Source: Proteromonas lacertae
Lineage: Eukaryota
NCBI GenBank assembly: GCA_002245135.1
Contig: NGBS01000292.1
Span: 248,001 to 312,000 of the forward strand
Direction of reading: 5' to 3'
DNA length: 64,000 nucleotides
Part shown: piece after piece, positions 2,495 to 60,139 of the stretch
Position numbering within the stretch: the first letter of the stretch is position 1
Layout: each line of letters begins with the position of its first letter
Notes under the pieces: generated by a model
What the model saw: only the letters and a program-made list of their open reading frames with translations
What the model was told of the DNA's origin: nothing
The model's database searches: none
Made by a program: the position numbers and the translations under genes

Positions 2495-4667
2495 ATGGAA
2501 GATGATTTAATTATGACAATAGAAGATACAGATGATGATGAAGTAGCTGTATCCTATGTTATCTAACTGTTATTATTAGATTCAAAAGAACTTGAAAGAA
2601 GATGAAGAAGAGGATCATCAAAGAAAAAAGAAAAAGAAAGTATTAATGCATCTTTTTAAATGTATAGAATTTAGAAATTGCTAATGACTTTATTTTTGAA
2701 GATGTACAGCCAACAGTTCAAACACTAAAAATAGATAATAATTCGATTGAAACGCAAATAGAAAAACATAAAACAAGAAAATTGGAAGAGAAAATACAGT
2801 TTATTAGAGAAAAATCTAACAATTATGGAATTGAAGAAGATGAGGATGAAGAAGAGGAAGAAGTGGAAGAAGAACAAAACATAGAAAATCAAAATAAAAG
2901 CGAAAGTGAAGAAGAAGATGATGATGATAATGAAGATGATGAAAATACAAATAAAAACAGTAATAATAAAGCTCAACAAAATAAACCTAAAAATAAAAAT
3001 TCAGATTTCTTTGATTATGATTCATCACTTTCAATCGACACAACCAATATAACGACCTTCTATTCATTTTCACTTTCTCGTTCACTTTTAAAAGCAATAA
3101 ACACAATGAATTTTAACCAACCAACTCCAATTCAAGCTAAAAGTATTCCACTAATATTGAAAGGAAGAGATGTTTGTGCATCTGCAAAGACAGGATCAGG
3201 TAAAACAATCGCATTTTTATTACCAATCGTTGAGAAGTTACTATACATGCAAGATGAGAATTATATAAAATGTTTAGTGATTGTTCCAACTAGAGAATTG
3301 GCAAATCAATGTTATGAAGTAGTGAAACAATTAACACAAGTATTAATGCTTTCTATATTTTTTTCCTCTCTCTCTCTCTTTCTTTCTTTATTCATTTATT
3401 TTTATATTTTAAATAGTTTACATCAATAACATCTACTCTTATCGTTGGTGGATTACCTCTCAAACAGCAAGAAATTACACTTCGTCACAATCCAGATATA
3501 GTTATATGTACTCCTGGTAGAATGATTGACCATATAAAGAACTCGATGAGTGTTTCGTTATATGATATAAAATATTTAATCTTAGATGAAGCTGATAAAT
3601 TATTAGAATTAGGTTTTCAAGCTGAATTAGAGGAAATAATCAAATCCTGTCCAATGAATCGTCAGACATTATTGTTTTCAGCTACTTTTTCAACCAAAGT
3701 AGATGATTTGATCAAATTATCATTAAACAAACCAGTAAGAGTATGTATTGATGACACAACCAAAGTAGTGGATAACTTATTACAAGAATTTATAAGAATA
3801 AGAGATGAAAGTTCAAGAGAAGCAATTCTATTATCATTAGTGAAGAGATATTTTAAAGATGATACAATTATATTCTGTTCAACTAAAGCTAGAGCTCATC
3901 GTCTGTTATTAATATTTGGATTAGCAGGTTTAAAGGCTGTAGAATTACACGGTAATTTGAATCAAACACAAAGAACTAACAGTATGGAAAGATTTAAAAA
4001 ACATGAAGTTAATTTCATGATAGCTACTGATATAGCAAGTAGAGGTATTGATATAGAAGGAGTTCAATGTGTTATAAATTATGAAATTCCATTTGATATT
4101 AATCGATATATTCATAGAGTAGGTAGAACTGCAAGAGCTGGTCATGGTGGAAGAGCAATTTCATTGGTAGGTGAAAGAGATAGAAAAATATTGAAAGAAA
4201 TAGTGAAAAGATCGCCAATGAGTGTAAAATCAAGAACTATTCCTCCTAGTCAGATTGAGAAGTGGAAAACTGCAATTAATGCGATGGAAAAGGATATTAA
4301 ATTGATATCAAAACAAGAGAAATTACAAAGTGAAGTTGATGAAGCAAATCGTGATATTGTAAAAGCAGAAAATATGATTAAATTTGAAGATGAAATAAAG
4401 AATAGGCCGAAGAGAGAATGGTTTCAATCAAATAAAGAAAAGAAAGAAATAAAAGAAAAAGAGAAAGAAGTACTTGGTTTGACTGAGAAAGAAATGAAGA
4501 AAATTCAAAAAGAGAAAATAAAAGTGAAGAAAATGAAGGAAGAAAAAGCTAAAGATAGTTATGCTCAAAAAGTGGTAGGTAAAGCTATTAAGAGGAAAAT
4601 GAGAGAAGATGGAAAATTTAGAAGAGATGCTTTAGCTCCAAAGAAAAAGAAGAATAAGAAACACTAA
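2495..4667 (+). CDS. DDX27: DEAD-box RNA helicase DDX27/Drs1 (ribosome biogenesis), 3 introns
   Basis: Acidic N-terminus, Q-motif PTPIQ, AKTGSGKT, PTRELA, DEAD, SAT, HRVGRTARAG, and Drs1-type C-terminal 'EIKNRPKREWFQS'. Confidence 0.9.
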
Positions 4668-12720: not shown

Positions 12721-15184
12721 TTATGTTAAATCTACTTTAAAATCTGTTTGCAACTCTTTTCGACATAATATTCCTTTCAATCTATTCTCATTATCACAAA
12801 CAGGTAAATGACGTATTCCCATCGAACGATCTATTAATAATAATAATAATGAATATTCATATACATAACGAATAAACTTTTGATAATGACCAACATTCAT
12901 TTACTATGAAAGGACTATGATTATAATAACATCTCAAATCAATATATAAATCCATTGACTTTGATAATACATTTATTTTATCAATATTCACTGTTAAACT
13001 AGATAAAGAAGTGCTAAAATCATATATTGATATTCTGTTGTTAATCAACTTTGGATCATCATTTATATTCTCTTCACTTACAAATACTTCTTTTTCAAAT
13101 AATACTATCAACTGATTTCGAAGAATTATTCCTAAACAATGATTATTTTCATCTATTATAGGAAAACCATTGTGAGTACTAATCAAATATTAATAAAACT
13201 ATAAACAAGAAATACGTTGTAGTAAGAACATTATATACTGTCGAGACTTTTTCTATTTCATGAAATGTAATTACTGGATTTATCATTACATCTTTTGCCT
13301 ATATATATATATATATATAATGTTAAAATTGTTATACATTTAACATTGATAAATGTTTTGGTGGAGTTGCTTCTACAAATGGAATTTTTCTTAACTCAAT
13401 GGTTTGATCATAAATTGAAATATTAAGAAAATCTCCAACCCATTTTGATATCATTAGCACTAACATTATAGGTAATAAATATTCTATATTATTTGTTGTT
13501 TCTAATAATATTACAGTTAAACTAATTGTCATTCTAGTTGTACCGCCCAATAATGCAGTTGAACCTATTAATGCATAAGTACCAGCTTTGATTTCACTAT
13601 TTGGTAATATTCCTATTAAAAACTGACCTATCATTCTTCCATAAGCAGATCCCATTAAAATTGTTGGAACAAATAAACCAGCTGGAACACTAATACCAAT
13701 TAAAAAAATATTAATTAACTTGAACTAAATTTTATATATATTATATATATAACACATAACAAAAAAGATATATGTAATAACAGCTAATAAATAAATAACA
13801 AAGAAATAGATTAATAATGCTTTCCAGTTCATTATATCAGTATTATGAAACATTCCTTTTATTGATTGTTCAAGTGGAGTAAATATTAAAGTTGCTAAAG
13901 GATTATAATAACCTTCCTCGCAACTATATCTTCGATAATATTCAAGAATTTCTTCACTTTCAGTAGGTATTTTGGAACAACTTCCATTAAATAAATTAGG
14001 AATCCAAAATTGAATTGTCACTGTTATAAAACCAATTATTAAAACTTCTAACACTTTAAATAATCTTCTCTTATGAATACAAATCCTTCGAAATTTTTGA
14101 ACTTTAATATTTAAGAAATTCCAACAAGCACCAAGTATTCCTCCTCCTATCCCAATTATTATAAATATTGGAATTTCCCATAAATGATAACCATCAGCAG
14201 GAAATGTTCCAAATGTAATTAAACCAGGTGAATTCATTGTTGTATCTCCTCTTTCTATCATTAATAATAAATTTAAAGTATAAGTGCTACACATTGCACC
14301 AAAAAATACTCTCCATGTCAATGGTAAAGACCAAAAACTAGAAGCTTCTTCTAATGAAAATAATACACCGCCTAATGGAGCACCAAATGCAGCAGCAACA
14401 CCAGCAGCTGCTCCACCACTTACAAAATCTCTTTTATCATGATCATTTCGATATTTCTTTAATGAATCATTATGTAATAGTTTTGGTATTTTGGGTAAAT
14501 GACTGATTATTGCTGCTAATGCTGCTCCTGTATGAACCATTGGACCTTCTTTTCCTCCAACTAAACCACCTGCTATACTCATCCATAAGCCAATCACTTT
14601 CACTGCTAATGTTTTAAATCTTAGGATTTTACTTATATTTGTACCATTTAAATAACTCTTTATTTCAGGAATACCTGAACCAGCTGCTGCTGGCTCTACG
14701 AATACAACTAATAATACTGGAATTGATATACATAATAATGAGATTGAAACAAAATATAAATAACCTAAGAACATCTGATTTTTCAATATTAATGAACGAG
14801 CTGGATTAAAACGTAAATTACTTACAAATGTTACACCTTCATGCTAAACCAAACGCTATTAAACCAGTACATATACCTACACACGAATAAACTAACCAAC
14901 CACATATAAATGCTATTCGTTTATCAGTTTTGGTTTGTTTTTCGAGATATTTCTTATTCAATCTATATATTACGCAAAATGTTTATACTCATTTTCAATT
15001 ATATCATAATCCAATGAATCATACTGCACTGTTATTGGTCTAATAATAATAATACATCAAAATACTCTTCTACGATATTTCGATGTTTAACTCCAAATAC
15101 TTCCTTCAATTGTTTAGCATGAATAGCTGATTTATCAGTTTCATCGGTTTCATATGGAATATCGTTCAACAAATAATCATTCAT
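12721..15184 (-). CDS. CLC chloride channel/antiporter (CLC-6/7-like) with CBS domains
   Basis: GSGIPE, GKEGPMVH, GVAAAFGAPLGGVLFSLEE, GLFVP and two CBS domains; apparent +1 frameshift at ~14844. Confidence 0.9.
13700..13771 (-). other. U12-type intron, AT-AA
   Basis: Donor ATATCTTT; removal to the AA restores the conserved VITFGISVPAGLFVP; branch site is weak. Confidence 0.6.
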
Positions 15185-15908: not shown

Positions 15909-17971
15909 ATGGTTTCAAAAGGATTGAGTGATTTGAAAGTGTTAATTGGTGAAGAAACAATAGAGAGTATGAGATGTATATTAATTAATGGAAATGAGAC
16001 ATTTCAAAAGTTATTAGAAGATGAACAATTTGAAGGAGTGTTAGTTTTATGTGAAGGAAGTAGTGTAGAATGATTTATAGAGATGGAGAAGTTTTACAGT
16101 GGTGGATGTATGGAATTATTAAATGAAAATGTAATAAATGTTTTATTGATGAGTATTTACTACAATGATAGTGAAATAATGAAATATTGTGTGAAGTATA
16201 TAAAAAGTCATTTATATGATGAAATGATATTGAAGATATTGGATTTATATGATTTATTTAAGAAAGAAGAGATTAATGAATTAATCAAGATAAGTGAAGA
16301 ATACTTGAAAGAAAATAGTTATAAGTACTTAAATAATGGTATATATATATATATGTAATTATCTAATTGTATAGAAGAATTATTATATAAGTTGAGAATA
16401 GAAAATTTGAAGATGATATTAGAAAGTGAAAAACTGATAATAAAAAATGAGAATTGGTTATTGAAAGTATTAATGAGATGGTATAGAAATGAAGAGAAGA
16501 AGATTGAAAAAGAAGAAAAGAAAGAATTAGATGAAGAATTTAAAAGAATATTATTAAAATCAATTCATCTAGAAGATGTGGAATTAGATGAGCTAGAACC
16601 TTCCATTTTAAATGAATTGAAAAACAATAGATATGAATGATTATTTAATGGAAATGAAAAACAGAATAAATCCAATATGTTTGAATAATGAAGAAATGAA
16701 AGATGAAAGAGTAGAAGAAATCATAGTAAAATATTACAAAAGTGAAGATGATAATATCAAAGAAGAAGATTTAATTGTATTGATTAATGAGAATACAATC
16801 TCAATGCTATTGAATAATAAAGATATAAGAATGAAAGAAATTGGTTTATTAATAATGATAGATAGTGGAATTGGATTGAAAGACATGAAAATCTCAAGTA
16901 AAACAAAAAGAAATATATTATGTGAATTGATAAATGAATATAAAAGTAAAGAAAATAATCGAATAATAAAATGTTTATGTTTGTTTATAAATGAAGAGAA
17001 GAACTTATTAACAATAGAGAATCTGTTAGGCAAGATGATATTATATGATTTATTGAATAATGATAATTTCTATTCAAATGAATCTAAGAAAATATTAATA
17101 AACTATATAAATCAAATTGTAGATGATAATGATGATGATGAAATATCAGAAATAAAAGAAATGAAGAAATATTAAACAAATTAACAAAAAAAATCACCTC
17201 ATTTTCATGTCCTCAATCAAAATATTCATTTATGGTAAATGATGAAATCTCAATTAATTCCAACATTTGATGGAGATAAATGTGAATTTTCAATAAATCC
17301 ATCTTTACCTGATGGTTTAATGATAGATAAAGAAAGTGGAATAATTCATGGAAGAGTAGAACAGCCAATGAAAGGGGATAATTATGAAATTACCTGTAAA
17401 AATATTCTAAGTGAAAAGAAATTCAAAATCTCATTGAAAGTAACACAAATACAATTTAATAGTTCTAACAAAAGTGAAGGAATATCAATCTCAAATAATG
17501 GAAAAGTAATAACAAATACAAATACATTTTATGGTTGGAATAATTGTTATTTGAATATGAAAATGGAAAATGGAGTTTATCATATCAAATATAGAATATC
17601 ATCGAAATGAAAGTGTAGATGATGGAATGTATTTAGGATTATCAACTAATAATACATATTCTGGATATGAATATTTATGATGCAATCAACAACATGTAAT
17701 TATTATGCAATTTGTAGTGAAAGTAGAGATATTACATCATTATGTCATATTGGAAGAGTTGTTAGCAGTAAATCCAAATTTCAATGATTGTGGAGATGGT
17801 TCAATTTATGAAGTGATTATTGATATGAATAAAAGAGAATTTTGGATAAGTCATAATAATTCATCTCCTGTTTTACTTGTTAAAGATTTACCTTCTCCAT
17901 TATATACATATGCTGCAATATATGGTCAAAACACTTCAGTTGAATTATTATCAGTCAATTATGAGAAATAA
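15909..17971 (+). pseudogene. BTB-BACK + putative Ig (He_PIG-like) + SPRY-like protein, disrupted
   Basis: BTB (SDLKVLIG..FQKLL..KFYSG), BACK (LKMILESEKL..ENWLLKVLMRW), PSLPDGLMIDKESGIIHG, SPRY-like (YEVIIDMNKREFWISHN..LPSPLY); in-frame TGA at 16071 and frameshifts near 16635, 17170-17240 and 17600-17760. Confidence 0.65.
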
Positions 17972-21272: not shown

Positions 21273-23895
21273 TTAATCAGCAACATTAACATCAACATCT
21301 TCCGTATCAACTCTCTTACCTTCAGAGGATTGTAATCTTTTATTTTTATTTTTATTATCTTCTTCAGGATTAATCAATCCTAACTCAGTCAAATATTCAA
21401 TCTCAATTCTTCTATAATCACCATTCATTCTATCTAACTCCATATGTCGCTTCTGTTCTTCAGACATTTCATCCTTTTGCTTAGTCTCATGCTTAGTTTC
21501 ATCTTTCTGTTTAAATGCATTTACCTTTTCAATATGTTCAGTAATCTTGTCAATATAATGGACTCTTTGTGATTCTCTTTCAAAATGTGATTGTATTATT
21601 TGCACTTCATTATTTACTTGTCTTCTCATTGATATTGGGATACTTAAAATGTATAAATTACCGTTACTATCACCAACTGCTATTAATTGCCTTCCAGTAT
21701 CACTATTTAATCTAAATTCCATTGATGATATTTGACCTGATGTGATTGGATGCACTATTGAGGCTGAATTACTCTGATCTGTGAAATCCCATACTTCTAA
21801 GTAACCATCAGTCCTACCAATATACAATACACCTGGACGTGTTGGACTCCATCTACCAATAGTAAAATCAGCTTGAGATCTTGGTGAGATAAACACAGGA
21901 TCTTGTAACTCACCCATATATATGTGGAAACTCCATGAACTTACTGTCAAATATACATTTGATACGAATGGTGATCTTTCTAATGATTTGATTGGTCGAA
22001 GTTGATCTTGTGAATGCCATCTGACATAGGAAGGTACCTCTCCTTCTAATTGGTTTAAATCACCACTTGCAATAACACCCATCTCTGAAACACATCTAAA
22101 GATAGTACTCTCGGTTTCATTGGGATCTGAGAAAATGAACCTCGTCATAGCCAAAGCACCTACTTCAGAAGAACAATCTATTAAATAACTAAATCGTGGA
22201 ACCCATGGCACTTCTTCATCATCTTTATATCGATACAATCCTGATCTCTTTGCAATTTCTTTATAATTCAAATCCCATACATTAATTTGGCCATCAATTG
22301 AACAGGACATAAACTGAGTAATATCTGAAGTCTCTTTCTTGTTAATCTGTCCTCTTGTATTCACTTCCATTTGTGTTTTAATCCAATGTAATGCCGTCAC
22401 TGCTTTACTGTGGCTCTTATCTGATGAACTGTATACAATTGGATCTAAATATTGTGAGTGTAAAGGATCTTCTAAAGGATCTCTTGGTCCTTTTTGTTTT
22501 TCTCTTTCTTTTTCTGCCCAGTTTTGTGCTAAATTGTACATCATCACTTGACCACTTGCTCCTCCTACTATCACAGTGTCTGGATTCTCAGGATGTATTA
22601 TAAATGAGTTAATTTCAACAGGTGATTTAAGAATCATCATTGGATGAATTAGATCTTCGAAACTCCATACCAATATATATGAGTTAGTAGGGAAAACACT
22701 CTTATTTCTTTTTTCTTCAAAACTGAGTTTCTCATTCACACTACACATTACTACACCTTTTCTTCTAGGATGCCATCTTATGTGTGATATAATTCTACCT
22801 TTACTGTGATCTAGATCAGTAAATACTCTAAATTCAGAGATTTGGTTTTCGGCTTGGTTGCCTAATGACAAACCATCTTCAGCAAAACTGTCCAACTCAT
22901 TTTTAAATACATCCACTGTCTCATTACTTTGTAAAGCAGATCTAACTAAAGGAACAACTCTATCCAAGAACAACGATAGTTCTTTTGACTTCAATTGCTC
23001 TTCTATGAAATTCTGGTCAAATGATCTAGTTTCATACTGAACTGAACTATTAACCAATCTAGCCAACTGACTTTGACAAGCTTCATCTTTTTTCAATGAG
23101 AAATAACTTGGACCTATTTGTAAGCATGTTTCTCTTTCCATTCTATTCAAATTATTGGCGAAATCAGGATCAATGTGTTTTCTAAAGTCATCACAGGTTT
23201 CTGGATCAACATCATTGAAGGTATAAGGAGCACAGAATTCACTTCGTTTTCTAGCAATTGTATAACTCAATAAAGGCCTTTGTGACTTAATTGTAAGCCA
23301 TTTCACATTTTCTATGGTAGCTTCTTCTGTTTCGGATTTATATTCTCTTGTAGTTAATGGCATTACTTCGTATATTCTCTGTGCTTCGATTTCTGCAGCA
23401 ATTTTTCTTTGTCTTTCTTCTTCTTCTAATCTTAGTTTTTCTTGTCTTTCCGCTTCTTCTTTATCTTTGAATACTTTTAATTCTCTATTGAATGCATCTT
23501 CTGTAATTGCAGCATACCAGTTCTATTGAAAATAAATCAAAAATAAAATACAGCTCCATATTGTTCATCAGGATCAGCTACTAAAATAATATCATCAAGT
23601 GGATATTCCTTTAATTGATCTGCACATGGTTGAAATATACAATAAAAGCCTACTTGTTGGATTTCATCCAACACATCATCTCTATTAAATAATTTATATG
23701 GTACTACATCATGTAAACCTTCACCAGTCTTTAAATCTATCGATATAATTAAAAAGTAAAGTAAATACCAGCATCTTCCATCTGTTTGATAGTTAATAAT
23801 AAAGAAACACATCCCTCTGGTGGCTGAGGTTTATTGTCTTCCACTACTACCTTCTTCTTCTTCTTCTTCTTCTTTCCCTTAGCTTTCTTTGCCAT
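21273..23895 (-). CDS. WDR63: WD40 axonemal dynein intermediate chain WDR63/DNAI3 (IC140-like)
   Basis: ALQSNETVDVF, ILVWSFEDLIHP, SCSIDGQINVWD, RWSPTRPGVLYIGRTDGYLEVWD; ATG at 23895; two short 5' introns. Confidence 0.8.
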
Positions 23896-25660: not shown

Positions 25661-28600
25661 TTACACCAAATTTATTGTTTTAAGAAATGAAAAAGTCTCT
25701 AAAAATGATTCTATTTCTGTTTTTGTAATATCTTCTTTTACTGTTATTAATAATACATCCAACTTACTGAAAATTCCTTTGTTTTCTTTCATTAATCTCA
25801 ATTTACTTTCATCTAATTCATTTCCTGACAAATTTACTTCATATATTGTTCCACTATAATCTTTTAATCTTTCTATTAACATTTTTAATCCCTTTTCACT
25901 CATTCCAATATCTATTTAATAGTATTAAATTCTTATTATACTTGAAAGATTTAACGATGGATAATAATCAATAAAATAATCAATATTACTACATATTATC
26001 TCCATTCCTTCATCTCCAATATTATTGTTATTTATTGAAACATACTTTGCTTTGCTTGAAATACAATCCATCAATTCTCTTAATCCTTTTGAAGTAATTT
26101 TATTGTTAGATAAATCAATAGCCTTATAATAAATCTGATTAATCAATGAAATGTGAGAATCATTGATATTCAAATCTATGGTTATATGAAAATAAATTCT
26201 ATACTGGATAAATCATATTTTCTTTCATTAAAATATCTTCTTTTCTTTTTAATACAATAATCCAAATAATATTCCAACTCTTCATTCGTCCATGACGTAG
26301 ATTTAACTTTTATGAATGGATATTTATCACCAATTAATGATTTTAAACAAATCGATTTTAATCCATTCATAGTTATTGAATTTCCATTTAGATTTACTCT
26401 GTAAAGCACTTCTATTGAATCTGACATTTTTGTTAATAACTCTACACTTTCGTCATCTATCGACGTATTACTCAAATTCATTTCATATGGATAATATTCA
26501 TCCTTTAACATGTTTAGATTGTTTTGTAATAATTTAAATCCAGCATTACCAATTGGATTATCTATATAAATAAATGATTATAACAAATATATATTATACC
26601 GTGAATGACTATTCTTCTAATATTATCATTTTCTTTCACATAATTCATCAAATAATCTATTCCAGATGAATCTATATTATTATCACTTAAATCCAACATT
26701 TCAATCTTTTCTTCAACATTCTTTAAACCGTTTAACAAATGTCTCAATCCAATTGACGATAATCCCATATCTATTCATCATTACACAATAACAATTATAC
26801 TTGTACAGTTTATTTTATTATCATAATCTTCATAATCATTATATTCTAATAACAAACGGCAATATGGAAGTAATATTTTCATTCCTAAATCTCCAATTTT
26901 ATTTCCATTTAATTGAAGCTCTTTTAAACATTGAAATGAAGAGAGATTGTTAATCAGTATTTCTATACTTTTGTATGTAAGTTTATTATCTAGACAATAA
27001 AAAAGAATATCATATTATACTACTCAAATCTATTTTTTTTATCTCTCTTAATTCGTTTAATCTTAATGAAATGAATGATTTGAAAATATCATCATTAATT
27101 TCTAAATCATTCAGATATAAACTATTTATAGTTTTAATAAATTTGATTAACTCTGGAATGTCTTTATCAATCAGTAATTCTTTACTTCCTTTAAAATTAA
27201 AATCAACTTCTGTAATTGGAAATTTAGAGAATAATGATTTTAATCCTTTTGAACTGATATTTAAGTTTTCTGTAATATCTATTTTCTGAAGATTTGGATA
27301 CTTATATAACTCTTCTGCTAATAGTATCATCGATTCATCATTTAAGTTCATATCATAAAGATCTAATTCATTATTTTTGTTAATTAATAAATGCAAATAT
27401 GGAAGTAACAATTTGAATCCTTTAATACCAATTCGATTAGCTATTTCAAAATAATTCATATTCTATGATAAATATACTAGAAAGATTTATATATTCTAAT
27501 TTCATTACTGGAATTGATTTAATAAATGATTCAATGAAATCAAACGTAAGATAACACGAGTTTAAATACAATTGTTGTAAATTTGATAATTGACTAAAAA
27601 ACATTCCGAATAATGGTTGATGTTGGATTGGAATGTTACAATCATCTAATAGAATAGAAATTATCAGAATTATACTGAATTTAAGTTTTGTAAGATTCAT
27701 TAATTTCAATACTTTGAACAAGTAATTCATTCCATCTTCACATAAACATATGCATTTTGAATCAACTGTGAGGATTTCATTATAAACATAAATATGAAAT
27801 ATTAATTCATCTAATAAACATTCTTTTTCATTATTTTTACACTTATGTTCTATTCCATATTTCAGTTTGTCTATAATAACATAATCTTCTTTGTATATTT
27901 TCATCAACAATAATATCGACACTATTATTTCATTTGGTTTGTTAATGTAAAAATCTATCAAATCATCACGAATATTTTCTCTTTTTTCACTCTTAAGATA
28001 GTATTCTGCTTTTACATTAAATGATGATATTTCTATTAAATAATCATTATTAAATAACACATCTTTTCTTTCTTTACACAACATTAAATTATTCTCATTA
28101 TCTCTCCATATTTCACCCATTTTTATCATTTCTTTTTTCAGCTCTTTTAAACTCCATCTATCTTCAATTTTCACTTTCAACATTCTGAATATCATTTCTT
28201 TTATTATTTCATCACATTCTGCATCAATACTGTATTTACATCTCACAATATTCTCTTTTGTTTTATCCATATTATTATCTTCATTAAATGGTAATCTTCT
28301 TACTAATCATTTCATATAATATACATCCAATTGACCAAATTACACTTTTATCATCACATTCATATCCGTTCAACTCTTCTGGACTTTTGAAGCAGATATC
28401 ATATAATCTCATTTCATCTTCATTTCTCAAACTATCGATAAATAAATCACATAACTTTATATTATCACCATCTTCCTCATATATTATGTTACTACTCTTC
28501 AAATTACTAACAACTATATTATATTCACTTAATATCATCAATATATCACATAAACCACATAATACATCACATATATCACTTTTACACGATAATGAGTTAA

Positions 28601-37941: not shown

Positions 37942-39406
37942 ATGAGTAAAGAGCTTATTCTTCTTGAAGATGACATTAAAAAATCAACAAATTCTCAAGT
38001 ACATGCTTTCTTCTAACAATTCATAGGCTGCAATTAATTTAATGAAAACATGCTTGGGATCTGGTCTTTTAGCTTTGCCGATTTTGTTCCAAGAGGTATG
38101 CAATGAATATATATTTCCTTTGTAGTCTGGTATTGTTGAAAGTGTACTTATATCATCCATAATTGGTTTTTGGGTGTATAATTGTGCAACTAAATTAGTT
38201 AAAATACAATACTTACTTGTTGATCGATTTGATGATTATAAAACACATTCAATGTACTCAGAAATTTGTTATCAAGTATATCCACATTTTATTATTATAT
38301 TACAGGCATACGGTAAAGTAGGAGAGAAAATGTTTGACTTGATGACAAGTGTAACTTTAATTGGTATAGGTTTAGTTTACACTGTATAAATTAAAACAAT
38401 TAATTTAATCCAAATAGTTAACATCCAGTGAAATGTTATCTGCATTGCCATGGGATAAAATGCATTTAGATTTCATGACTAATCAGAATTATTGTATTAT
38501 TTTAGTGACATTACTACTAATTCCAGTCATATTGTTAAGAGATATGACTTCATTATCGTTTTCAAGCTTATTAGGAAATATTGCAATAATTAGCAGTATT
38601 GTTTTGGTGTTAATGTATAATTTTTTAAAATTAATATAATCATAAATAGATATGGATTAATCTATAATGATATGAATAACCTATTAGTTAATGTAAAATG
38701 GGTAGATAGTTCATTGAAAGGAATATCCAATTTATACGGGACATTGTTATATTCATTCGGAGTAATCTTCGTTGCACTACCAACAGTAGATGAGATGCAA
38801 ACTCCTGACGATTTCAGTAGAATATTATCCATTACCACCACATCTTCAGCTTTATTTTATGCAATATGTAACTCATTCCTCTATATATTGTTCCATAATG
38901 CTACTGGTGGCGTGAAAGGAAATATATTAGAGAATATGCATCCAGAATCTGTTTTTTATTATGTTGCTACAGTGTTAGTCTCATTGATGTGTGTATTTTC
39001 ATATCCTGTCACTGTTATGCCAGCTTTGCAATTATGTGAGCCAAAAAGTGATGAAAATGATCGTGGATTATTCACTCATAATTATAAGAAGATTCTATTT
39101 AGGATATCGATTGTTATTATTGCTTCAATAACTGCATTTTTCTTTCCTAGTTTTAATATCGTAGTTTCATTATATATCTTTTTGAAAACATTCTATTATT
39201 CAATATTATTTCTTTAATTTAATATTTTACTAGGTAATTTAACAATAACTCTTATTACATTTGTATTTCCTCCATTATTATATATTAAACTAAAAGGAGA
39301 AGATACTACAACCTCAGAGAAATATCATAATATAATTTTATCAATATTTGGACTTGCAAGTATGGTTTTTACAACAGTTACAGCAATAGTAACATTAAAA
39401 CATTAA
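37942..39406 (+). CDS. AAAP amino acid permease paralog 2
   Basis: NLMKTCLGSGLLALP; tandem with paralog 1; last exon joined through an AT-AC intron. Confidence 0.85.
39174..39230 (+). other. U12-type AT-AC intron
   Basis: ATATCTTT donor, TTCTTTAAT branch, TTTTAC end; splicing gives VVSLLGNLT, matching the paralogs' VSLIGNVT. Confidence 0.85.
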
Positions 39407-39443: not shown

Positions 39444-42400
39444 TTATCTACTAAATAATTCAATATTATGAGAAAGATTTTCTACTTTTATTTTATACAA
39501 CTCGTATAAATATGGTAAATACTCATATATTTCTGATATTTCATCATGATTCAATTTCAAACGTGTTAAATCTATTGAATGTTTCTCTTTTATTGAAGAT
39601 AAAAGTGTGTGATATGTTGTATGTAAATCAAAAACTGTCTTTTCTATCACTCTAAATCTTTGATTTGGATATTTCAAACAAATATTCAACAACAAATATT
39701 CATATCCTTTTTTACTATCACTATTATTATATTCTTCACAAATATCCTCCAATAAATCTATTCATATAATAGAAATATAATTAATACTATATCTTTTCAT
39801 AATTTCGTTATATTCTTCTTCACTTTCAAAATGATATTTACTATTGTTTATCATTTCCTTTACTTTTTCTATCCATTTATAATTTGGATCATATAATTCT
39901 ACATCTTCCATTAACTCTTCGTCTATATCTCCCATGTTATTACCTGACACAATAATCTCTTTAACATTTGGATATTTTTTAATGTAAGTTAAAAGCTCTC
40001 TTATCTCATTAGATGTGAATTTATTATCTATAAATAATAATAATTACAATTATAATAAACTTTTTAAAACCAAAGATTTTATCACTATTTTTGGATTGAA
40101 TAGCATACATAAATTTGATATACAATTATCTGTTAAGGAATTATCTATAATACAAAATAAATATATTGAAATATATATACTTGATAAACATAGCATTTCC
40201 AGATTATGGAATGTATTAAATCTACTAGATATTATCTTGATTGCTAAATCAGTTAAACCACATTCTATTACATTATAAAATAATAGAATTACTAATAAAA
40301 TCTATTCTTATAAAATTATTAATATTCTTTGAATTAAAAAGATACTCCACTCCTTTATCAGTAATACAATTTCCTAATTGAATTATTATAATTAAAATAT
40401 ACTATTGATATTCAACATATTAATGTATGGTAAATTATCTAATGATTTTGATAAATATTTACAGCTAATTGCAGTTAAATTATTATCACCAACATTTATA
40501 AACTGTAAGTTGGACATACAATACAAATTCAAACATATTATTTTCATTGATTCATCTGTTAAATTTGTTTTCTGTAATTCTAAATTTTTTAAATTATGAA
40601 AAGAATCTGGTAATATTTTAAATCCTTTGAAATTTAATTTATTATCTATTTATTATTATGCTATATATATAATACAATTAAGATTGAATTCATTTAATCT
40701 CTTTGAATAAATTATATCACATAAATATTCTACTCCATCATCTGAAATATCATTTATACCTACATATAATCCCTCTAATCTTGACAGTATTGGAAAATAT
40801 TTAGACAAACCTCTTACTCCTTCATTTGTTATTCTATTGCCATTTACACCGAATGATTTAAGATTTGGTAGATGAGGTAATAAGTTACATAAATTATTTA
40901 AACCTTTGTCATTCAGATTATTGTCTATGAAGAATCGTATTTAATAAAATAACATATATACATCCAACGCCAAGTACTGTTATTGATAATGATTTAGGAA
41001 TAGATAATATCTCATTCAAATGTTCTACATCATCATTTCCTATCTCATTATCTATTAAACTAAAGATGAAAAGATATACAATTCATAAATATATTTCTGA
41101 GATTTAGTAAACTCATTAATTTTTTCATTAACATGCAAAATGAATAAGAATTTAATTGGCATCCACACAAACTAATTTCCTTTAGATTTTGACAAATTAA
41201 TATTGCATTAGAAAAACATTCTATACCAATTTCTGTAAAACTATTATTTGACATATCCAATTTTATTAACTTGTTTAAATAATGTAGGTTAAGCGATATA
41301 TACTTTAAACCACAATCATCTATATTTATTTCATATAAACTAAGTTCTGCTAAATTTGTCAATATGCTGAATCTATTACTTATTTCTTTTATTCCTTCAT
41401 TGCCTATATTGTTTTTATCAAGACATAACTGCTGTAAATACTTTAAATACGATAATTGTGAAGCAAGTTCTATAGCTCCTACAGTATTGAATCTATTATC
41501 TAAAAAAATAAAATATATTTATATTAATATACTCATTAATGATAAAATTTCTAAATAAACAACATTTCTTAGATTCTTACTTAACTCAATAACTCCAGAA
41601 TCATCAATATAATTATCTATTCAAATGAATATATTATAATATATACTATCCAATATAAGTTCTATTAAATACATACAACTATTCATTTGTCTAATTAATA
41701 AAGGAATAATGGATGATGATAAATTATCATCTCTAAAACATATTGTACGTAGTTGATATGCTTCAGACAATCCATCTAATATCAAATTCACTTTTTCATC
41801 ATTCAATCCACAATCTAAAAATAGACTATAAATATACATTGAAAATTAATTGTGATTATTCTTTTCAGATTTTTAATATAATAGCTTATGAAACAGCAGT
41901 CTTCAATAGTCAATCTCTTACCTATGTCAATAAAATAAAAATTTCTATACCTTTTGCTTCTATGTTTAGTGTATTTCCTATGCATTTACAATACTTCAGT
42001 CTTGAGTAATCATTTTCACAATCAATCATTTTCATCACTTTACTACCAATTCCATAATTCATTGCTATAATACATAAAAAGTTGAAAATTATTTCATCCC
42101 TTGTTCTATTGAAAGTATTTGCCACATCTTCCAATAAACCTATTTCAAATATTATCATGAAAAACAAGTATACCACAACTATCAACAACATATAACATTA
42201 CTCTTTCATTTGAATAACAGTCTTCTGTCTTTAATAAATTATATACTTCACTTTTACTAATAACTATTTAAATGAAATGATAATAATATCAATATATACA
42301 TTCTGAATCTACTTCTTTTATTTTATCCAAAAGATTAGGAATCTTTGATGAATCGATTGGATTTCTACTAATTTCCAGTTTAATTTTGTATGGTAATTGC

Positions 42401-45400
42401 TGAATACTCTCCAACAACACTTCACACCCCTTTTCTGTCATTCTGTTGCCTAATTGATATATAAATAAATAAAATACCTTTCAAATCTATCGATTCTAAT
42501 AATGGTAGAAGATGAAGTGAATGAGCAAATGATATTATTCCACTATCATCTATATAATTATTACATAATGTGATTCTTTTCAATTCAGACAAATAACTCA
42601 TGTTTTGTAGAAAGTATTTAAATCCAGCAATACTTATATCATTCTCTATTTTTAGAAAATATATAAAAGATTTACTGTTAATGTTAAATTCTTCAAGATT
42701 TTGCTAGTACGCTAAAATTTTTGCATAATACAGTAAATATATCATCTGTTATTTCACAGTCTAAATAATATCAGAAGAAATAAATACTATTAATTATTAG
42801 ATTCTTCAATGATCTTAAAAGTCTAATTGATTCGATCAATTCTTTAAACAATGATAGACAATTATGAATATCATCGAAAGCTAATGTTGTCAAATTTGTG
42901 ACATAACGTAAATTGTCTCTTATCGCTTTCAACCCTAATATTCCGCACCCACAATCTATATAAAATATAAACTCAAATAATAAGCAAACTTTGAAAACTG
43001 ATTTGCTCTAGTTTTCTAATGTATTTGAAAGAATTGGCAATTGATATCACTCCTTCATCTCCAATTGTTATTAAAAAAAAAATAAAAGTTTTCAAATTTG
43101 ATAAATATGGTAAAGCTTTTGAAAATTCCAATATTCCTTTTGAAGTAATAGAGTTTCCTATAAAAAATGCATTTGATTGAATAATATACTATAAATTCCT
43201 ATTATTTCAAGTTTTGTGAATCTTGTTAAAGCTTTGCTCAGCTTAATTAATACATTGTCACTTAGTTTGTTCTGAGAAATATTTAACCAATAATAATTTA
43301 GGACAATATTGTAAAGCATCACATAATATTTCTATATCATTATCATCAAGATTCTGATCTATGAAAATGGTAATGAAGAAAAATACTTTCAAGATTAATT
43401 CCATAATTATTCTGTATTCCTGAAAATATTTTATTCTGACTTCCTTTTAGTTTTGTTATATTCATTATTGATAGTTTATAAGCAGGGTATAGTGAGAGTG
43501 CAAAACCAAACAATATTCCAAAGAAATAATTCCTTGGATTATTCATTACACGATATGTATGGTTTGTCATAATATCTACAATTGATTAAAAAAGAATTTC
43601 TATACTAATATTCTTACTTAGTTGTTTATATATATAATGATTATCTATAATGTACTGACTTGTCTTCAACATTTCAAAAGCATCATTACTAATATTTTTG
43701 AATGAAAATTTCAATGGAATTGATTTGTTTTCATAATTATATAATAATAGTTTCACACTTTCATGGTTTAAAGATATTCCACATAAACTCAGTTTTTCTA
43801 ACTTTGGCATTTTGTACATGTATCTATGAATATATTTAACTGATTTATCACTCAATTTATTATCTAAAATATGTATTAAAAAAACTACATTATACAAGAT
43901 AAATACAACTTTGATAGTTCATTAAATGAGTTAGAATAACACAAAAATATAATAATATCATTGTCTTTAAGATGAGTGAAAGAGATTTTGAGAGATTTTA
44001 AATATGGCATATGTGACAAACCTATTGCAAATTCTTTCATTTTCTTATGTAAATTTATACTTTCTAAATAAATATAATAATTAATTAAATATACTGGACA
44101 TATTCAATTGTTCTAAACACGGAAACATTGATTCAGTTGGAATAAATCTTTTCAATTCTATGTTATACATGTTTAGTATTTTCAACTTTTGAATATAACT
44201 ATAATCTATATCTGATAGATGTTGTGTATCATCAACACTCATATTGGATAGATTTAGTTGAAATGGCTTTTCAGAATGCAGATAAAACTTCACTTTAAAA
44301 CTATTATCTTTCTTTATCAATAAATCTATTAATTCCTTATTATCTTTATTTAACCAACTAATATTTAACAAATAGTAAAGATATTTAATTTATTGTAAGA
44401 ATTAAAGTAGTGAATCATTTCCATTAAGTTTTCTAAACAGAATTACAATGCATATATACTTTTGTTTGTTATTGTTTTGTCAAATATAATTGAATCTTTT
44501 ATTAAATAATTATTTGAAATTAAATTGATAACAGAATGGAACATCGATTGCAAATATATCAATTATATCATTTTCTTCTATCATCTCTTTCATCTTCTTC
44601 TTTAAATGATTATAAATCTCTTCTATTGTTGGTCTTTTGTTTGGATCATTATTACAACATTTTCCATATAATTTGTGGTAATTCGAAGTGTTTCCATTGT
44701 AATTTATATGCAATATAGGTGATTTTGAGAATAAAATATAATGTAATAATACTCCTAGACTGAATATATCACTTTTATTACAGATTTCTTTGTTTTGTAT
44801 AACTTCTGGTGATGTATAAAATAAATCTTCTAGATCACATGATTCTATAGGATTCATTTCATATTCACAGGGATTACTTACTATATAATTACCATCATCT
44901 GTTATTAAGATATTTGAAGGTTTGATTCTTCCATGAATTAAACCAATTTTGTGTAATAATCTTAATTGATTTACTATTTGATTAAACATCTTATTTATGG
45001 TATTTTCATCAAAACTATCTACTCCTTCAATTGATCCATTTTTATAATAAGGTAATACTATTATCGATATAATCTTCGTACATTGCAACTATTGCAAAAA
45101 AATAGGAGTTTCTAGAGAGGATATTAACATAATTGAATTTATCTATAAAAATAATAAAATATATTATACATATGAAAGTTGAATTGGAATTGATTGTTCT
45201 TCTAAATCATATATTTTATATACTAGCCTGGTTAAAATTCTTTTCTTCCACAATATAAGTATATGAGTATTTGGTTGATTTTAGCTTAGATTTTAACTAT
45301 TTGTACATTTATATGAAATATACTTTAAAACCAAAAATTTCACAAAGTTCCATATCCGCATCTGACTATATATATACATATAACATATCAATACCTCAAC

Positions 45401-46793: not shown

Positions 46794-47903
46794 ATGAGTG
46801 ATTCAGACCAAAGTATAACCAAACAGGCAAGTTTCAAAGCGTGTGACTCTGAAGCTTTAGATGAAGCTCAAAAGAAAAGGATGAACAACTACATTGAGTA
46901 TTAAAGGATATTTATTACTGTTATTAATAGCACATTGGTTAGATCTACTGATTTATACAAACCTGACATGCCAAATTCCATTATGGCTGATTTGACTCAA
47001 TTAATCAACAACTCTAAACTCTTGTTCTACATTGTTTTATGCAATATGTCAAGAAACCAAAATAATGAAAAGCCTTAATAGATGTATAGTTTGTATTTAT
47101 AACTGTTTAGATATTACTATTAAAAAATGCCCCATTCGAGTATTATGACTCAGCATTGCATTTGCTTTTGATAATGATGAATGAACCAGATACTCATAAA
47201 TTCTATTTAGCACAACGAAACTGTTTCAATGTCTTGTTAAATTTTTTACCTTATAATTCAACCACTTTTACTCAAGATCAGATTGTACATTTAGCAGTAG
47301 AAGCTTCTAATCTATTAAACTTATTATTAGCTGAAAATAGGAGAATGGCAAGACAAAATTATTTCAATGCCCCAAGTTTACCAGAACGGCTGTATAAATT
47401 CTTGCAATGGTCAATATCATTATATCCAACACAATACACTGAAAATACAGTACTTACATACGATATCAAAAGTAATTCACCAACATCGTCCTCATCTTCT
47501 TCATCATCCTCTACTCAACATTTATATAATACATATGACTTATGTAAAACCAGTTTAGAATTAATCAAAGAATCAGCTGCAGAAAGAGTAAGATATCAAG
47601 GTATAATATATAAATATAATACACATAAATAGATATTTTATGTAATAAAGACTACAATATATTATTATTACTATTAAAGCAATGTCTATACCCTATTCTC
47701 TCTACACACCCTCTAGAAGATATCCAATCATCTTCATTCATATCATCTCCTTATGTTATATATCTATTAGACTGCTTAAGGTCATTGATAGTCTTTAATA
47801 ATAAAGTCATTAACCATATAATAAGTAATGATAATAATAATAATATTTTATTATCGTTATATTGTGAATTATTGAAATTATATGTTTTATTCAATTATAA
47901 TTC

Positions 47904-47940
<37 letters not shown>

Positions 47941-50681
47941 TAGCAATGAAAATGAATCACTTTCTGTTAAGCCAATATATTATAGTTTATTACATTATAT
48001 GTCATTATTACCATATGATAATTCAACAATTGAAAGAATATTGTTAGAATATCAAGAGAAATATAATGTTTCATTCACTAATACATTAATAAAGCAATAT
48101 TTCCCAAGTGTTACTGATAATATTATATATTTACAATTAGAGTTATATTTTCATGTATATATAATATATATATATATTGTTATTATTATTAAATATAGAT
48201 ATTTGAATCAATATCTAAAGATCTGTATAAAATTAAAATTCATCATTATGAAGAAGACACTGTAGTACAAGCACTTACTGTATAATATATATTTATTATT
48301 ATATATTTAGTCTATTTATAATATAATGTCTAATGAATATGATGCATTCTATTTCTTCTATATCTCCTACAGTGGTACAAGACTGCTAATACAGTGTCTT
48401 AATGTATTAGATGAAACGGTAATATTAAAAGCTTGTCAATTAACCTATTTATATTTATACAATTATACTGATGGAATTGTTCCTTTTATAGAAAGAGGTG
48501 GTTTATATGCATTAAAGGAATGTATAAATGATTATGATCCTCAAATCAGAATCGAGTCTTTAAAAGCTTTATCTGTGTTTTATAACATTGAGAATGAGAT
48601 TGATATTAAGAAATATGGAATATTGAAGGAATTATGTGAAATTATTGATTCTTATCCAAGTGAAGATATATCTTTTTATTATTATTATATCATTATATTT
48701 TATAATTATTTTTCTTTAATTTTTATTTGTTTTACTGTCCATTAGAGATATTTGATACAACTGTTCAAATCCTAATAATTGCAGTAAAGACTAATGTTTT
48801 TAATCAAGTATATATAAATATATATATTATATTTAATAGGATGAATTATCATGTAATGGAAGATTAGATAAACTATGTCATATCTTAAAAACAGAATTAG
48901 AAAATATAATAAACCATCAACCATCAATATCCTTATATATATATATATATATATAAATTGTTATATTTCCTTTATTATTTTTTACTCATTACCTTTATCA
49001 CCTGAAGAAGTATTAGATGTAATAACACATATATTATTATGTATAACCAATACAATATATCACAACACCAGAAACCAAAATATCATTTACAGTACTGGAA
49101 TAATTGAATATTGTTGGAATATTAAGAATAAAATAAGTGATACTTTTTGTGATAATATATTGACATTATTAATCAATTGTATTGATACAAATAAGACTGT
49201 TCAAAATGCTTTTGGTGGTGAGGAAATAAAGAATGATATATTATATATTTTGGATGAAAAAAATAGAAAAAGTAAAAGAGCTTTAGGTTATATAATGATT
49301 TCACATTTATGATATCTTTTTATTATTATTATAATGTTATTATTATAATTATTATTTTCTTTAATTTAAAAGTTGTAATTGGAATAGTGAAAAAATCCAA
49401 CAACTTTATACTTGTGAAGAAATATTAAAGTATTTCAAAATTGACATTAATTACTGTAACTATGATCCTGAATCTCCAATCTCTATCTATAACCCAACAC
49501 TCTCTGCATTATATGCGTTTATTAATCTTTCTCTAAATAATAATAAATTAAAACAATCGATTAAGAATTATCCATCTATCAGTAGAACTTTGATTGACTT
49601 TTTGACTGTTGATAGTTATGATATTCGAAAGAATACAATATTTTGTTTAAGTAATTTGATAGATGATAATGAGGATCTAGCAGATCAGTATATATATATA
49701 TATATATATAATATTATTTATTTATTAGATTGTATAATTTATCAATAATTCCAAAGTTAATTTATAATATCAATGACAATAATGATGATCCACTATCTAC
49801 AAAGGCATATCAAGTATTAGAAAGAATGAGCAAACAGACTATTATCTATATAATCAGTTCATTATATTATATGAATAAAAATGAAATTAATAATAATTTC
49901 AGTAGTAATTTAGTCAATCAAATTGAGAATGAATTTAAAGATAAAATATTGAAGTTGAATGATGATGATAAAGCTAATAAACCACATGTTGAGACTAATA
50001 AAGAGTTTATATTGTCTTATGTTAGTATTTTGAATGGATTATTATATACCAATTCTACTTCTAGAAAGTTCTTTTTATCAAAATTTATATCCTTTTTTTA
50101 GAAATTTCTGAGAAATTTCTTTAATTTTTTTTGTAAGGAATTGCACCGTTATTATATTTAATAATGAAAACTGATAATGAATTAAGAGATATTATTTGTT
50201 TAATATTAACTAATTCATCCCTTGATAGAAGTACATCTCTTCAAAACGAAAGTGTAAAAGAAGGCTTACTAACAGTATTTGAAGAGTTATTTGTCATTTT
50301 ATCGAAGAAGAGTGAAAGTGATAAAAATATGAAAGAAGAACATTATATCTATCCTTTTGATGTTTTAACGAATTATACATTAAATAATAGTTCCGTGTCA
50401 TATACTATTATGAATTGGAAAAATGATTTTTATATGAAATTGTTAAAGTATTGTCATAGTAGTAATAAAGAATATTCAGTAATATGTGTAGAGTTGTTAA
50501 TTTCGATTTTGGAACAAGTATTTTAATATTTATTTATTTATTTATTTAGTCTAAAGCTGGTGCTATAGCATCTGGAATTTCAGGAACAAAAACATGTTTG
50601 AATGAAATTGTAAAATATGATTATCTGAGCGATGCTTTAAGAGCAAGAGCAAAACAGTGTATTAGGGACTTAAAACTGTAG
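46794..50681 (+). CDS. armadillo/HEAT-repeat protein with four U12-type introns
   Basis: FIERGGLYALKECI, NQNIIYSTGII, GIAPLLYLI, IRKNTIFCLSNL ARM-like segments; an in-frame model needs both GT-AG and AT-AN introns. Confidence 0.7.
47905..47935. repeat. (TA)n microsatellite extending an intron donor GTATATA
   Basis: Same pattern at 108-139, 8873-8890, 25125-25151 and 49689-49710. Confidence 0.8.
48668..48735 (+). other. U12-type AT-AC intron
   Basis: ATATCTTT...TTCTTTAAT...TTTAC, phase 0, restores frame. Confidence 0.85.
48927..48985 (+). other. U12-type AT-AC intron
   Basis: ATATCCTT...TTCCTTTAT...TTTAC, phase 0, restores frame. Confidence 0.85.
49312..49378 (+). other. U12-type intron, AT-AA (alternative AT-AG end at 49372)
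   Basis: ATATCTTT donor removes the TGA; TTCTTTAAT branch; both candidate ends are in frame. Confidence 0.75.
50087..50136 (+). other. U12-type intron, AT-AA
   Basis: ATATCCTT donor in phase 0, TTCTTTAAT branch; the AA end gives in-frame SKF|GIAPLLYLIMK whereas the adjacent AG is out of frame. Confidence 0.8.
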
Positions 50682-50852: not shown

Positions 50853-52431
50853 ATGAGTACTGTAGATTCAAAACTTTCAGATACTCAATCTTCAAGTGAG
50901 TTAGTATTTTTACTTATTACTACTGTTTTTAGCATGCTGAAGATTTAGTTTTACTACAGGAAGAAATAGATGCACAGCAAAAGAATGCAAAAGTAGCACC
51001 ATAATATCCTTTTTATTTAGTGTATTTATGAAAGATAGCCTTAATAAATATACTTATTTAAATTATCCAATGGTTTATGTATTTTTATACATGTTCATGG
51101 TATTTACAAATCACATTATGATACATCAATATAACACAAGTGAATGTAGAGGTCCTAGAGCATATTTAGTGGGCCAGATAGTACTAGGCTATCTAATAAT
51201 GTTTTTATATGCATGGACTTTTATTGGTCCTGTTCCATTCTCTTCATTTACATATTATTTAGCATTGTGGGCAGTTCATAGTGTGTTATCAGTGTTTTGG
51301 TTTATAATGGGAATAGTATGGGAAGTAAAACAGAAAACATGTGTATAAATTATTAATAATTATAAATTTCATATAGAGAGACGATGCTCCTGGTGTATTT
51401 TGGTTGTGTTTTGTTGAATTACTAATTTTTGCTTTAGAAGTCGTACTTTTAATCTTATCCTACATATTCAGTTCAATTGATGACTGTTTAGAAAGAGTGA
51501 AAGAAGAAGATGCAATAATTAAAGACTTTGAAGAACAATTCGAAGATGATAAACGTCTAATTGAGGAAAAAGAAGAAGAAAAAGAGAAACAAGCCATCAA
51601 ACCAGTATTTCAATTTGATGTTATTGAGAATAAACAACCTGTTGCTGGAAGAAATGCAAAAGCATCAGCAAAAACAATTAAATCAGTTAATGGTAGTGTT
51701 ACTCGTAGTAGAGCTGTACAATCAATTCCAACGAAGAGATCAGTGGGTGATGAAAGAAAAACGCAATCAGTTACAAAAAGATCATCCAGTGGAGAACATA
51801 AAAGTTCAAGTGGAAAAAGTGGTGGAAAAGGCGGAAAATCTAGTAGTGAAGAAGAGAAGAAAGGATCTAGTACAACGTCTTCAGATAAAGGTGAGAAAGT
51901 ATTTGGTGAAGCTAAGAAATGTATATATATATATATAATCATTTTATTATATTGATTTAAATATAGCATCAAGTGATTCTAAAAGTGGTTCAAAAAGTGA
52001 ATCAAAGACAGATTCAAAGAGTGAATCTAAAAGCACTTCATCTGATGAAAGAAAGAGTATTTACATTCATATTTTTATTTATTATTTTAATAGAAGATTC
52101 ATCAAGTGATTCACATAGCGATTCTCATAATAGAAAGAGTTCTTCTTCAGAGAATAAGTCGGGTGAAAGAAAAAGTGAGTCATCTACTACATCTAGTTCA
52201 AGTAAAGGAGGTGCAAATCATTCTACAAGTGGTAGTGGAAGTGGAAGTGGAAATGCTGAAGGAACAAAAGCAAAGAGTCATTCAAGTGAAAGTGAAGGTG
52301 AAAGAAAGAGTGGATCATCAAGTAGTGGTAAAGAAGATAGAAAGAGTGAATCATCTGGTAGTAGAAGTGGAGAAGAGAAGAATGATGACGATCCACCACC
52401 ACCACCACCACCTCCAGAAGAAGAAGAATAA
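50853..52431 (+). CDS. 4-TM membrane protein with Ser/Lys/Glu-rich low-complexity tail and poly-Pro end
   Basis: Hydrophobic segments 51060-51470, then S/K/E-rich exons; the exons join in frame. Confidence 0.65.
51004..51053 (+). other. U12-type AT-AC intron
   Basis: ATATCCTT...GCCTTAAT...ATAC; removes the TAA and gives VAPYYLNYPM. Confidence 0.85.
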
Positions 52432-60066: not shown

Positions 60067-60139
60067 TGCCCGGGCCGCGATTCGGACGCGGGTTATTTCG
60101 GCCACAACGAAATGTACTAACCAACTATACTACCCGGGC
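60067..60139 (-). tRNA. tRNA-His(GTG)
   Basis: Acceptor stem GCCCGGG/CCCGGGC, anticodon arm TTTCG-TTGTGGC-CGAAA, T arm CCGCG-TCCGAAT-CGCGG. Confidence 0.93.

Follow-up and report, generated by a model that had tools for sequence, protein, structure and literature searches.

The 64-kb window, i.e. the whole stretch of DNA analysed, is eukaryotic and has a GC content of 27%. The gene-finder model of the window comprises 101 GT-AG introns of 26–87 nt and five introns with AT donors, to which two AT-donor introns found by hand were added, one at 51004 and one at 13771 in a gene for a CLC-6/7-like chloride transporter, the latter replacing a GT-AG call. All seven are predicted to be of the U12 type, four of them with AT-AC termini and two with an AA end, or three when the intron at 49312 is included (Table 1). 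The resulting minor-intron share of about 7 in 108 is an upper estimate, as 5′ introns are partly missed by the model and four of the seven lie in one gene. Together with the intron at 51004, these four make five U12-type introns within 2.4 kb.

Table 1. Predicted U12-type introns of the window and two of their host genes.
Feature	Position	Strand	Termini	Length	Phase	Branch-to-end distance	Basis
CLC-6/7-like chloride transporter gene, apparent 1-nt frameshift near 14844	12721..15184	-					gene model, profile comparison
U12-type intron in the CLC gene	13700..13771	-	AT-AA	72 nt	1		homologue-fixed junction
U12-type intron in an amino-acid transporter gene (PF01490)	39174..39230	+	AT-AC	57 nt	1		paralogue alignment
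Host gene of four U12-type introns, with 7 GT-AG introns	47174..50681	+		~1004 aa (model)			gene model
U12-type intron	48668..48735	+	AT-AC	68 nt	0	16 nt	frame and motifs only
U12-type intron	48927..48985	+	AT-AC	59 nt	0	11 nt	frame, motifs
U12-type intron	49312..49378	+	AT-AA (49378) or AT-AG (49372)		2	14 or 8 nt	motifs and frame
U12-type intron	50087..50136	+	AT-AA	50 nt	0	12 nt	motifs, frame, relatives' read-through ORFs
U12-type intron	51004..51053	+	probably AT-AC	50 nt	2	9 nt	frame and motifs only

The protein encoded at 47174–50681 is helical and, by eye only, ARM-like; orthologue fragments share 55–91% identity with it, while the best Pfam match (E 0.073) is below the cut-off and no Foldseek match was obtained at E ≤ 0.001 with a structure model of pLDDT 57.5. 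For its exon 49380–49685, no relative was found in metagenome contigs (none among 335 pattern matches), and for exon 49730–50086 none in prokaryote genome contigs (0/80) or viral contigs (0/10). The host of the intron at 51004 is a membrane-protein gene with a weak Serinc match below the cut-off. Elsewhere in the window, a homologue of the axonemal dynein chain WDR63/DNAI3/IC140 (21273–23895, minus strand, E 2e-73) points to a flagellate, and the source organism is probably flagellated. Named matches for DDX6 reach 65%, none of them from Blastocystis. Three Hsp70-like genes were recognized by eye at 18520, 34738 and 57595, a tRNA-His(GTG) lies at 60067–60139 (minus strand), and two repeat-protein genes (25661–28270 and 39444–44242, minus strand), leucine-rich by eye, have nearly all of their introns in phase 1. 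Apparent frameshifts or in-frame stops break the CLC gene near 14844 and a kinase-like gene near 28290 (both minus strand) as well as a fragmented gene at 16070–17700 (plus strand); such apparent lesions may represent either consensus errors or pseudogenes.

Pairs of the motifs ATATCYTT and TTCYTTWAY, the latter 20–70 nt downstream, occur seven times in the window. Across 200 block shuffles they averaged 0.27 and never exceeded 2, so that the observed number lies above every shuffle and the pairing is not a matter of chance. Five pairs correspond to the introns at 39174, 48668, 48927, 49312 and 50087, and the remaining two (30298 and 39789) are antisense to genes and are coincidences. Compared with the U12-type 5′ consensus RTATCCTT, the donor reads ATATCCTT in three and ATATCTTT in four of the seven introns, position +6 being T in four. 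A branch site resembling TTCCTTAAC is present as exact TTCYTTWAY in five introns, its final base being T, not C, and with two mismatches in the CLC and 51004 introns. Distances from the branch A to the intron end are short (9, 11, 11, 12, 13, 14 or alternatively 8, and 16 nt; optimum 11–13 nt). A distinct polypyrimidine tract is not a feature of U12-type introns; here, T-runs follow the branch motif, in introns with a GC content of 7–20% throughout. Retention of any of the seven leads to an early stop. An Rfam search of the 64-kb window returned no minor snRNA, its sole match being a tRNA.

The GT-AG introns of the window begin with GTAT in 96 and end with TAG in 99 of 101 cases, the strong T bias at donor position +4 being reminiscent of lineages without U6 m6A. 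This local donor is close to ATAT, and both U2-type AT-AC introns and edited AA ends are on record (PMC1557818, PMC4176328), so that the major spliceosome might process these seven introns, taken as real, or inosine editing might cause the last A to be read as G. Both variants are very unlikely, however, as position +5 is C in all seven AT introns versus only two of the 101 GT-AG introns (A 60, T 33, G 6, C 2), a departure from the local U2 consensus on which U2-type introns with AT termini were rejected. In addition, the AT introns carry the U12-like branch motif and, at 50–72 nt, are in general longer than the local GT-AG introns, and the edited AA ends listed in the paper cited for them are of the U2-like GT-AA kind. 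Separately, a 31-nt GT-AG intron at 2549–2579 (plus strand) in a DEAD-box helicase-like gene has a GTATCCT donor and CTAAC near its 3′ end and is a possible candidate for a GT-AG intron of the U12 type.

At 50087, the donor ATATCCTT is followed by the branch motif TTCTTTAAT at 50117–50125, with the branch A at 50124, and retention of the intron gives a stop after four codons. The first-pass annotation had described a phase-0 donor and an in-frame TTGTAA end with the adjacent AG displaced by 1 nt, all of which is confirmed by sequence and frame: when intron lengths of 35–95 nt were scanned, the first in-frame A-N end was the AA at 50136 and the next lay 21 nt further on, and use of the AG at 50137 would shift the frame by 1 nt. 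Within this intron, 50100–50120 holds a 10-nt direct repeat whose second copy extends into the branch motif. When the upstream exon was used as query, two protein clusters without names were retrieved, with identities of 88 and 82% and 12 members in total, nine of which contain the exon before 50087, while three cover the preceding exon. All nine are genomic ORFs that read on into the intron. In these ORFs (eight aligned, P0260 read by eye), the 19 residues ahead of the exon's last two codons are invariant or nearly so, and I-S-F, the translated donor, is kept in all nine. Conservation stops directly after I-S-F, which fixes the donor at 50087 and removes the rival GT at 50025. The latter would belong to an ordinary GT-AG intron, 50025–50137, on the reading that such introns are used here and in the CLC gene (13781–13725 or 13753–13682) and that the AT signals are incidental. 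In-frame GT-AG bridges are indeed present, 50025 matches the local GTAT consensus, and the gene finder picked 13781–13725 for CLC. Nevertheless, removal of 50025–50137 would drop some 20 codons that show no variation among relatives diverging by 11–18% elsewhere, and its 113 nt exceed the length of every modelled GT-AG intron, so this reading is very improbable at 50087 and, for the reasons given below, in the CLC gene.

The 3′ end of the 50087 intron can be followed in the relatives as well. In five of the nine, its branch motif can be made out in translation as S-L-I-F or F-L-stop, and the intron length varies from 50 nt in the window to about 80 nt in P0251 and probably about 60 nt in P0250 and P0257. 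An AA ahead of the next exon is readable in one of the nine, P0251, the remaining ORFs ending short of it. Across the acceptor, which it passes in another frame, P0251 has the residues C-K-E-L-H, and the window gives the same reading; with C, G or T as the final base the reading would be T, R or M, and with an additional G it would be V-R. The clearest branch motif of P0251 lies about 22 nt from the end in this protein-level reading, and a nearer weak branch site is possible. In P0250 and P0257, the ORF stops where expected, consistent with TAA but equally with TAG or a contig end. These data bear on whether AA ends could be consensus errors for AC or AG, caused by a substitution, a lost terminal base or, at 50137, a G lost from a run. 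The apparent breaks in the CLC and kinase-like genes and in the 16000–17700 gene would speak for such errors. P0251, however, is a distinct relative with 89% identity over the exon, thus no copy of the window, and shows the same AA and no extra G, so the AA at 50136, the one end on which P0251 bears, is not a consensus error. More generally, the modelled exons, about 47 kb in total, contain only a few breaks, and an error at one given base would be far less likely than the 4% rate of AA ends in Blastocystis, making consensus errors an extremely unlikely explanation for the AA ends. Hence, 50087–50136 holds as a U12-type intron with a well-supported predicted AA end.

The intron of the CLC gene has a weak branch motif at 13718–13710, and its junction is fixed by homologues. 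In agreement with the earlier claim that this intron needs an AA end, the AA at 13700 is the sole A-N end that, together with the AT donor, restores the T-[YF]-G found at the junction in 119 of 119 homologues (P0023, which has a gap there, excluded). Scored against the profile, the AA model reached 860.6 bits, whereas the five other models compared, four GT-AG and one AT-AG, gave 835.4–848.7 bits. The best GT-AG model attained 848.7 bits, and all four GT-AG models tested are 12–23 bits lower than the AA model and disrupt the motif T-[YF]-G-x-x-V-P-x-G. An AA end of this intron is hence a well-supported prediction. The frameshift near 14844 may be either a consensus error or a sign of a damaged copy. 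A single missing terminal C would likewise make this intron look as if it ended in AA, an improbable event for one given base. Of 80 loci with CLC matches, 38 were inspected; at the T-[YF]-G codon none carried an AT intron, the matches at three of them not reaching the site. In locus L002, a GT-AG intron lies a few codons further downstream, and L016 has an AG-ended intron nearby. In a tree of 47 sequences (46 of the 120 homologues plus the window model), the window model is sister to P0023, a public CLC model from Blastocystis, with a support of only 0.48. P0023 lacks 22 residues right over the window's U12 junction, a gap that may stem from wrong splicing of a non-canonical intron there. A literature search on U12 introns in CLC genes found no report of such introns.

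For the intron at 49312, with its branch A at 49364, the AA at 49378 (14 nt) and the AG at 49372 (8 nt) are both in frame. Its reported resemblance to the 50087 intron is correct, as both share the TTGTAA end at a similar branch distance (14 versus 12 nt), but the AA end is not forced by the frame. No homologue spanning the junction was found, and self-alignment scores of 36 versus 34 for the two ends are not decisive. We judge the AA at 49378 to be the probable end, because base –3 and the branch distance then match the other six introns. Use of the AG, giving an AT-AG intron, or of both ends with a two-residue difference is the less probable option at this one site, albeit a realistic one: the AG was chosen by the gene finder, and AT-AG has a precedent in 53 of 183 Blastocystis ST1 rows, with branch-to-end distances of about 5–9 nt there by eye. 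It would, however, make base –3 an A, which is T in the other six introns, and would lie closer to the branch A than the 9–16 nt found in these.

Among the four AT-AC introns, that at 39174 is confirmed by paralogues, its AC junction aligning with them without gaps. None of the three transporter paralogues modelled in the window contains the intron, which is a candidate for a recent minor-intron gain, or else for losses in the paralogues. For the intron at 48927, a GT/GC-AG bridge is absent within 100 nt.

In all seven proposed ends, the penultimate base is A and the preceding base T, while the final position varies between C and A. A rule that selects the first A-N (or Y-A-N) located 9 nt or more beyond the branch A predicts all seven, whereas demanding AC or AG instead predicts at most four. 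This rule is post hoc, being one of 24 pairs of rule and threshold, with the threshold set by one intron and the AA at 49378 assumed. The first-pass annotation had proposed that the 3′ site is set by distance from the branch point rather than by the dinucleotide. This stands insofar as either C or A is accepted at the last base and the location relative to the branch site matters. It goes too far in that the dinucleotide retains a role, the penultimate A and the T before it being invariant, and in that distances spread over 9–16 nt; under the above rule, branch distance would act as a minimum and not as a fixed measure. The AG at 50137 is also within the optimal branch distance and would compete with the AA at 50136. 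As judged from motifs, frame and homologues, the U12-type introns of the window are probably removed by a minor spliceosome, which would cut after the first A-N that follows the branch A by about 9 nt or more, some of them thus ending in AA. From established splicing knowledge, U11/U12 would read the donor and the branch site, the penultimate A of the intron would pair with the branch A, and the last base would pair loosely with the first A, tolerating C, A, G or U. Given the low GC content of the genome and of these introns, C may have been lost wherever this is tolerated, namely from donor position +6, the branch motif and the final base. Losses at the first two sites would leave G-U wobble pairs with canonical snRNAs. 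The idea of a distance effect is not novel, since both branch-to-end distance and AT-AN tolerance are already in print: distance matters in minor introns, with the above optimum (PMC3584512), an intron starting with A accepts any base at its 3′ end, with a preference for C (PMC4176328, citing Dietrich 2005), and the pairings of penultimate A with branch A and of first with last base are described for yeast (PMC11585973). At present, the AA ends are best read as the known AT-AN tolerance of the minor spliceosome, extended to another protist.

The suggestion that AT-AA is common here but rare elsewhere overstates the case. The AA share is 2/7 (95% interval 4–71%) or 3/7 (10–82%) in a tiny sample from a window picked for these ends, two of which lie in one gene, and AT-AA is established in other protists. 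In the RNA-seq-curated introns of Blastocystis ST1, 183 rows comprise AC 119, AG 53, AA 8 and AT 3 (PMC5608401, S11 Data); this hand count covers 183 of 339 ATATCC/ATATCT rows, namely ATATCC rows 1–150 and 307–336 and all three ATATCT rows. Fisher tests against these rows give p 0.046 (2/7) and 0.005 (3/7), uncorrected for window selection and the shared gene, and at an AA background of 10%, 2/7 gives p 0.15. With n = 7, an AA excess over the compared species is at most plausible. A literature search for AT-AA in connection with Blastocystis or Proteromonas found no report on this point. A far-reaching reading, which we consider doubtful, would be that of a flagellate lineage, possibly related to Blastocystis, with a minor-intron share of at least about 5%, some of these introns recently gained and nearly all with an AT start, with AT-AA in place of AT-AG as a main class (at least a quarter), and with a minor spliceosome that takes the first Y-A-N located 9 nt or more beyond the branch site whatever its last base. 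If a genome-wide count upholds 7 in about 108 and a high AA share, the lineage would be a natural test of terminal-pair drift under AT pressure and also of minor-intron gain. In any case, annotation restricted to GT-AG or AT-AC introns will mis-splice such genes.

In the rows counted, Blastocystis ST1 resembles the window in its AT-start donors, short introns among GT-AG introns of about 30 nt, a CTT-N-A-Y branch motif and a relaxed last base, with all four ends occurring (PMC5608401). Its minor introns amount to about 1% of introns (346 of about 35,000), with up to three per gene in these rows compared with four at 47174–50681. They are, however, mostly 37–47 nt long in these rows versus 50–72 nt in the window, with the shorter branch-to-end distances mentioned above. 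Donor +6 is T in 3/339 versus 4/7, and AA and AG ends, 2–3 and 0–1 of seven here, contrast with the Blastocystis proportions. Furthermore, Blastocystis has lost nearly all flagellar genes (PMC12129017), whereas IC140/DNAI3 is present in the window's organism. Animal and plant minor introns share the AT-AA termini, the commonest non-canonical minor subtype in both kingdoms, but such introns are rare there, with non-canonical ends accounting for about 4% of conserved minor introns (PMC10639083, PMC1557818) and AT-AA for 3 of 189 human AT-start minor introns (PMC1557818). A further comparison is offered by the expanded minor system of Physarum polycephalum with its +6T donor variant, eroded branch motif and many non-canonical ends, of which, among 1,014, 29% are AT-AG and 27% AT-AA, the branch A lying 9–12 nt from the end (bioRxiv 10.1101/2020.10.12.336362). 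By our own estimate from the figures given in this preprint, AT-AA represents about 11% of the AT-start introns of Physarum. There, however, GT-start introns dominate and the motif is TTTGA, whereas all seven confident cases in the window start with AT and carry the motif TTCYTTWAT.
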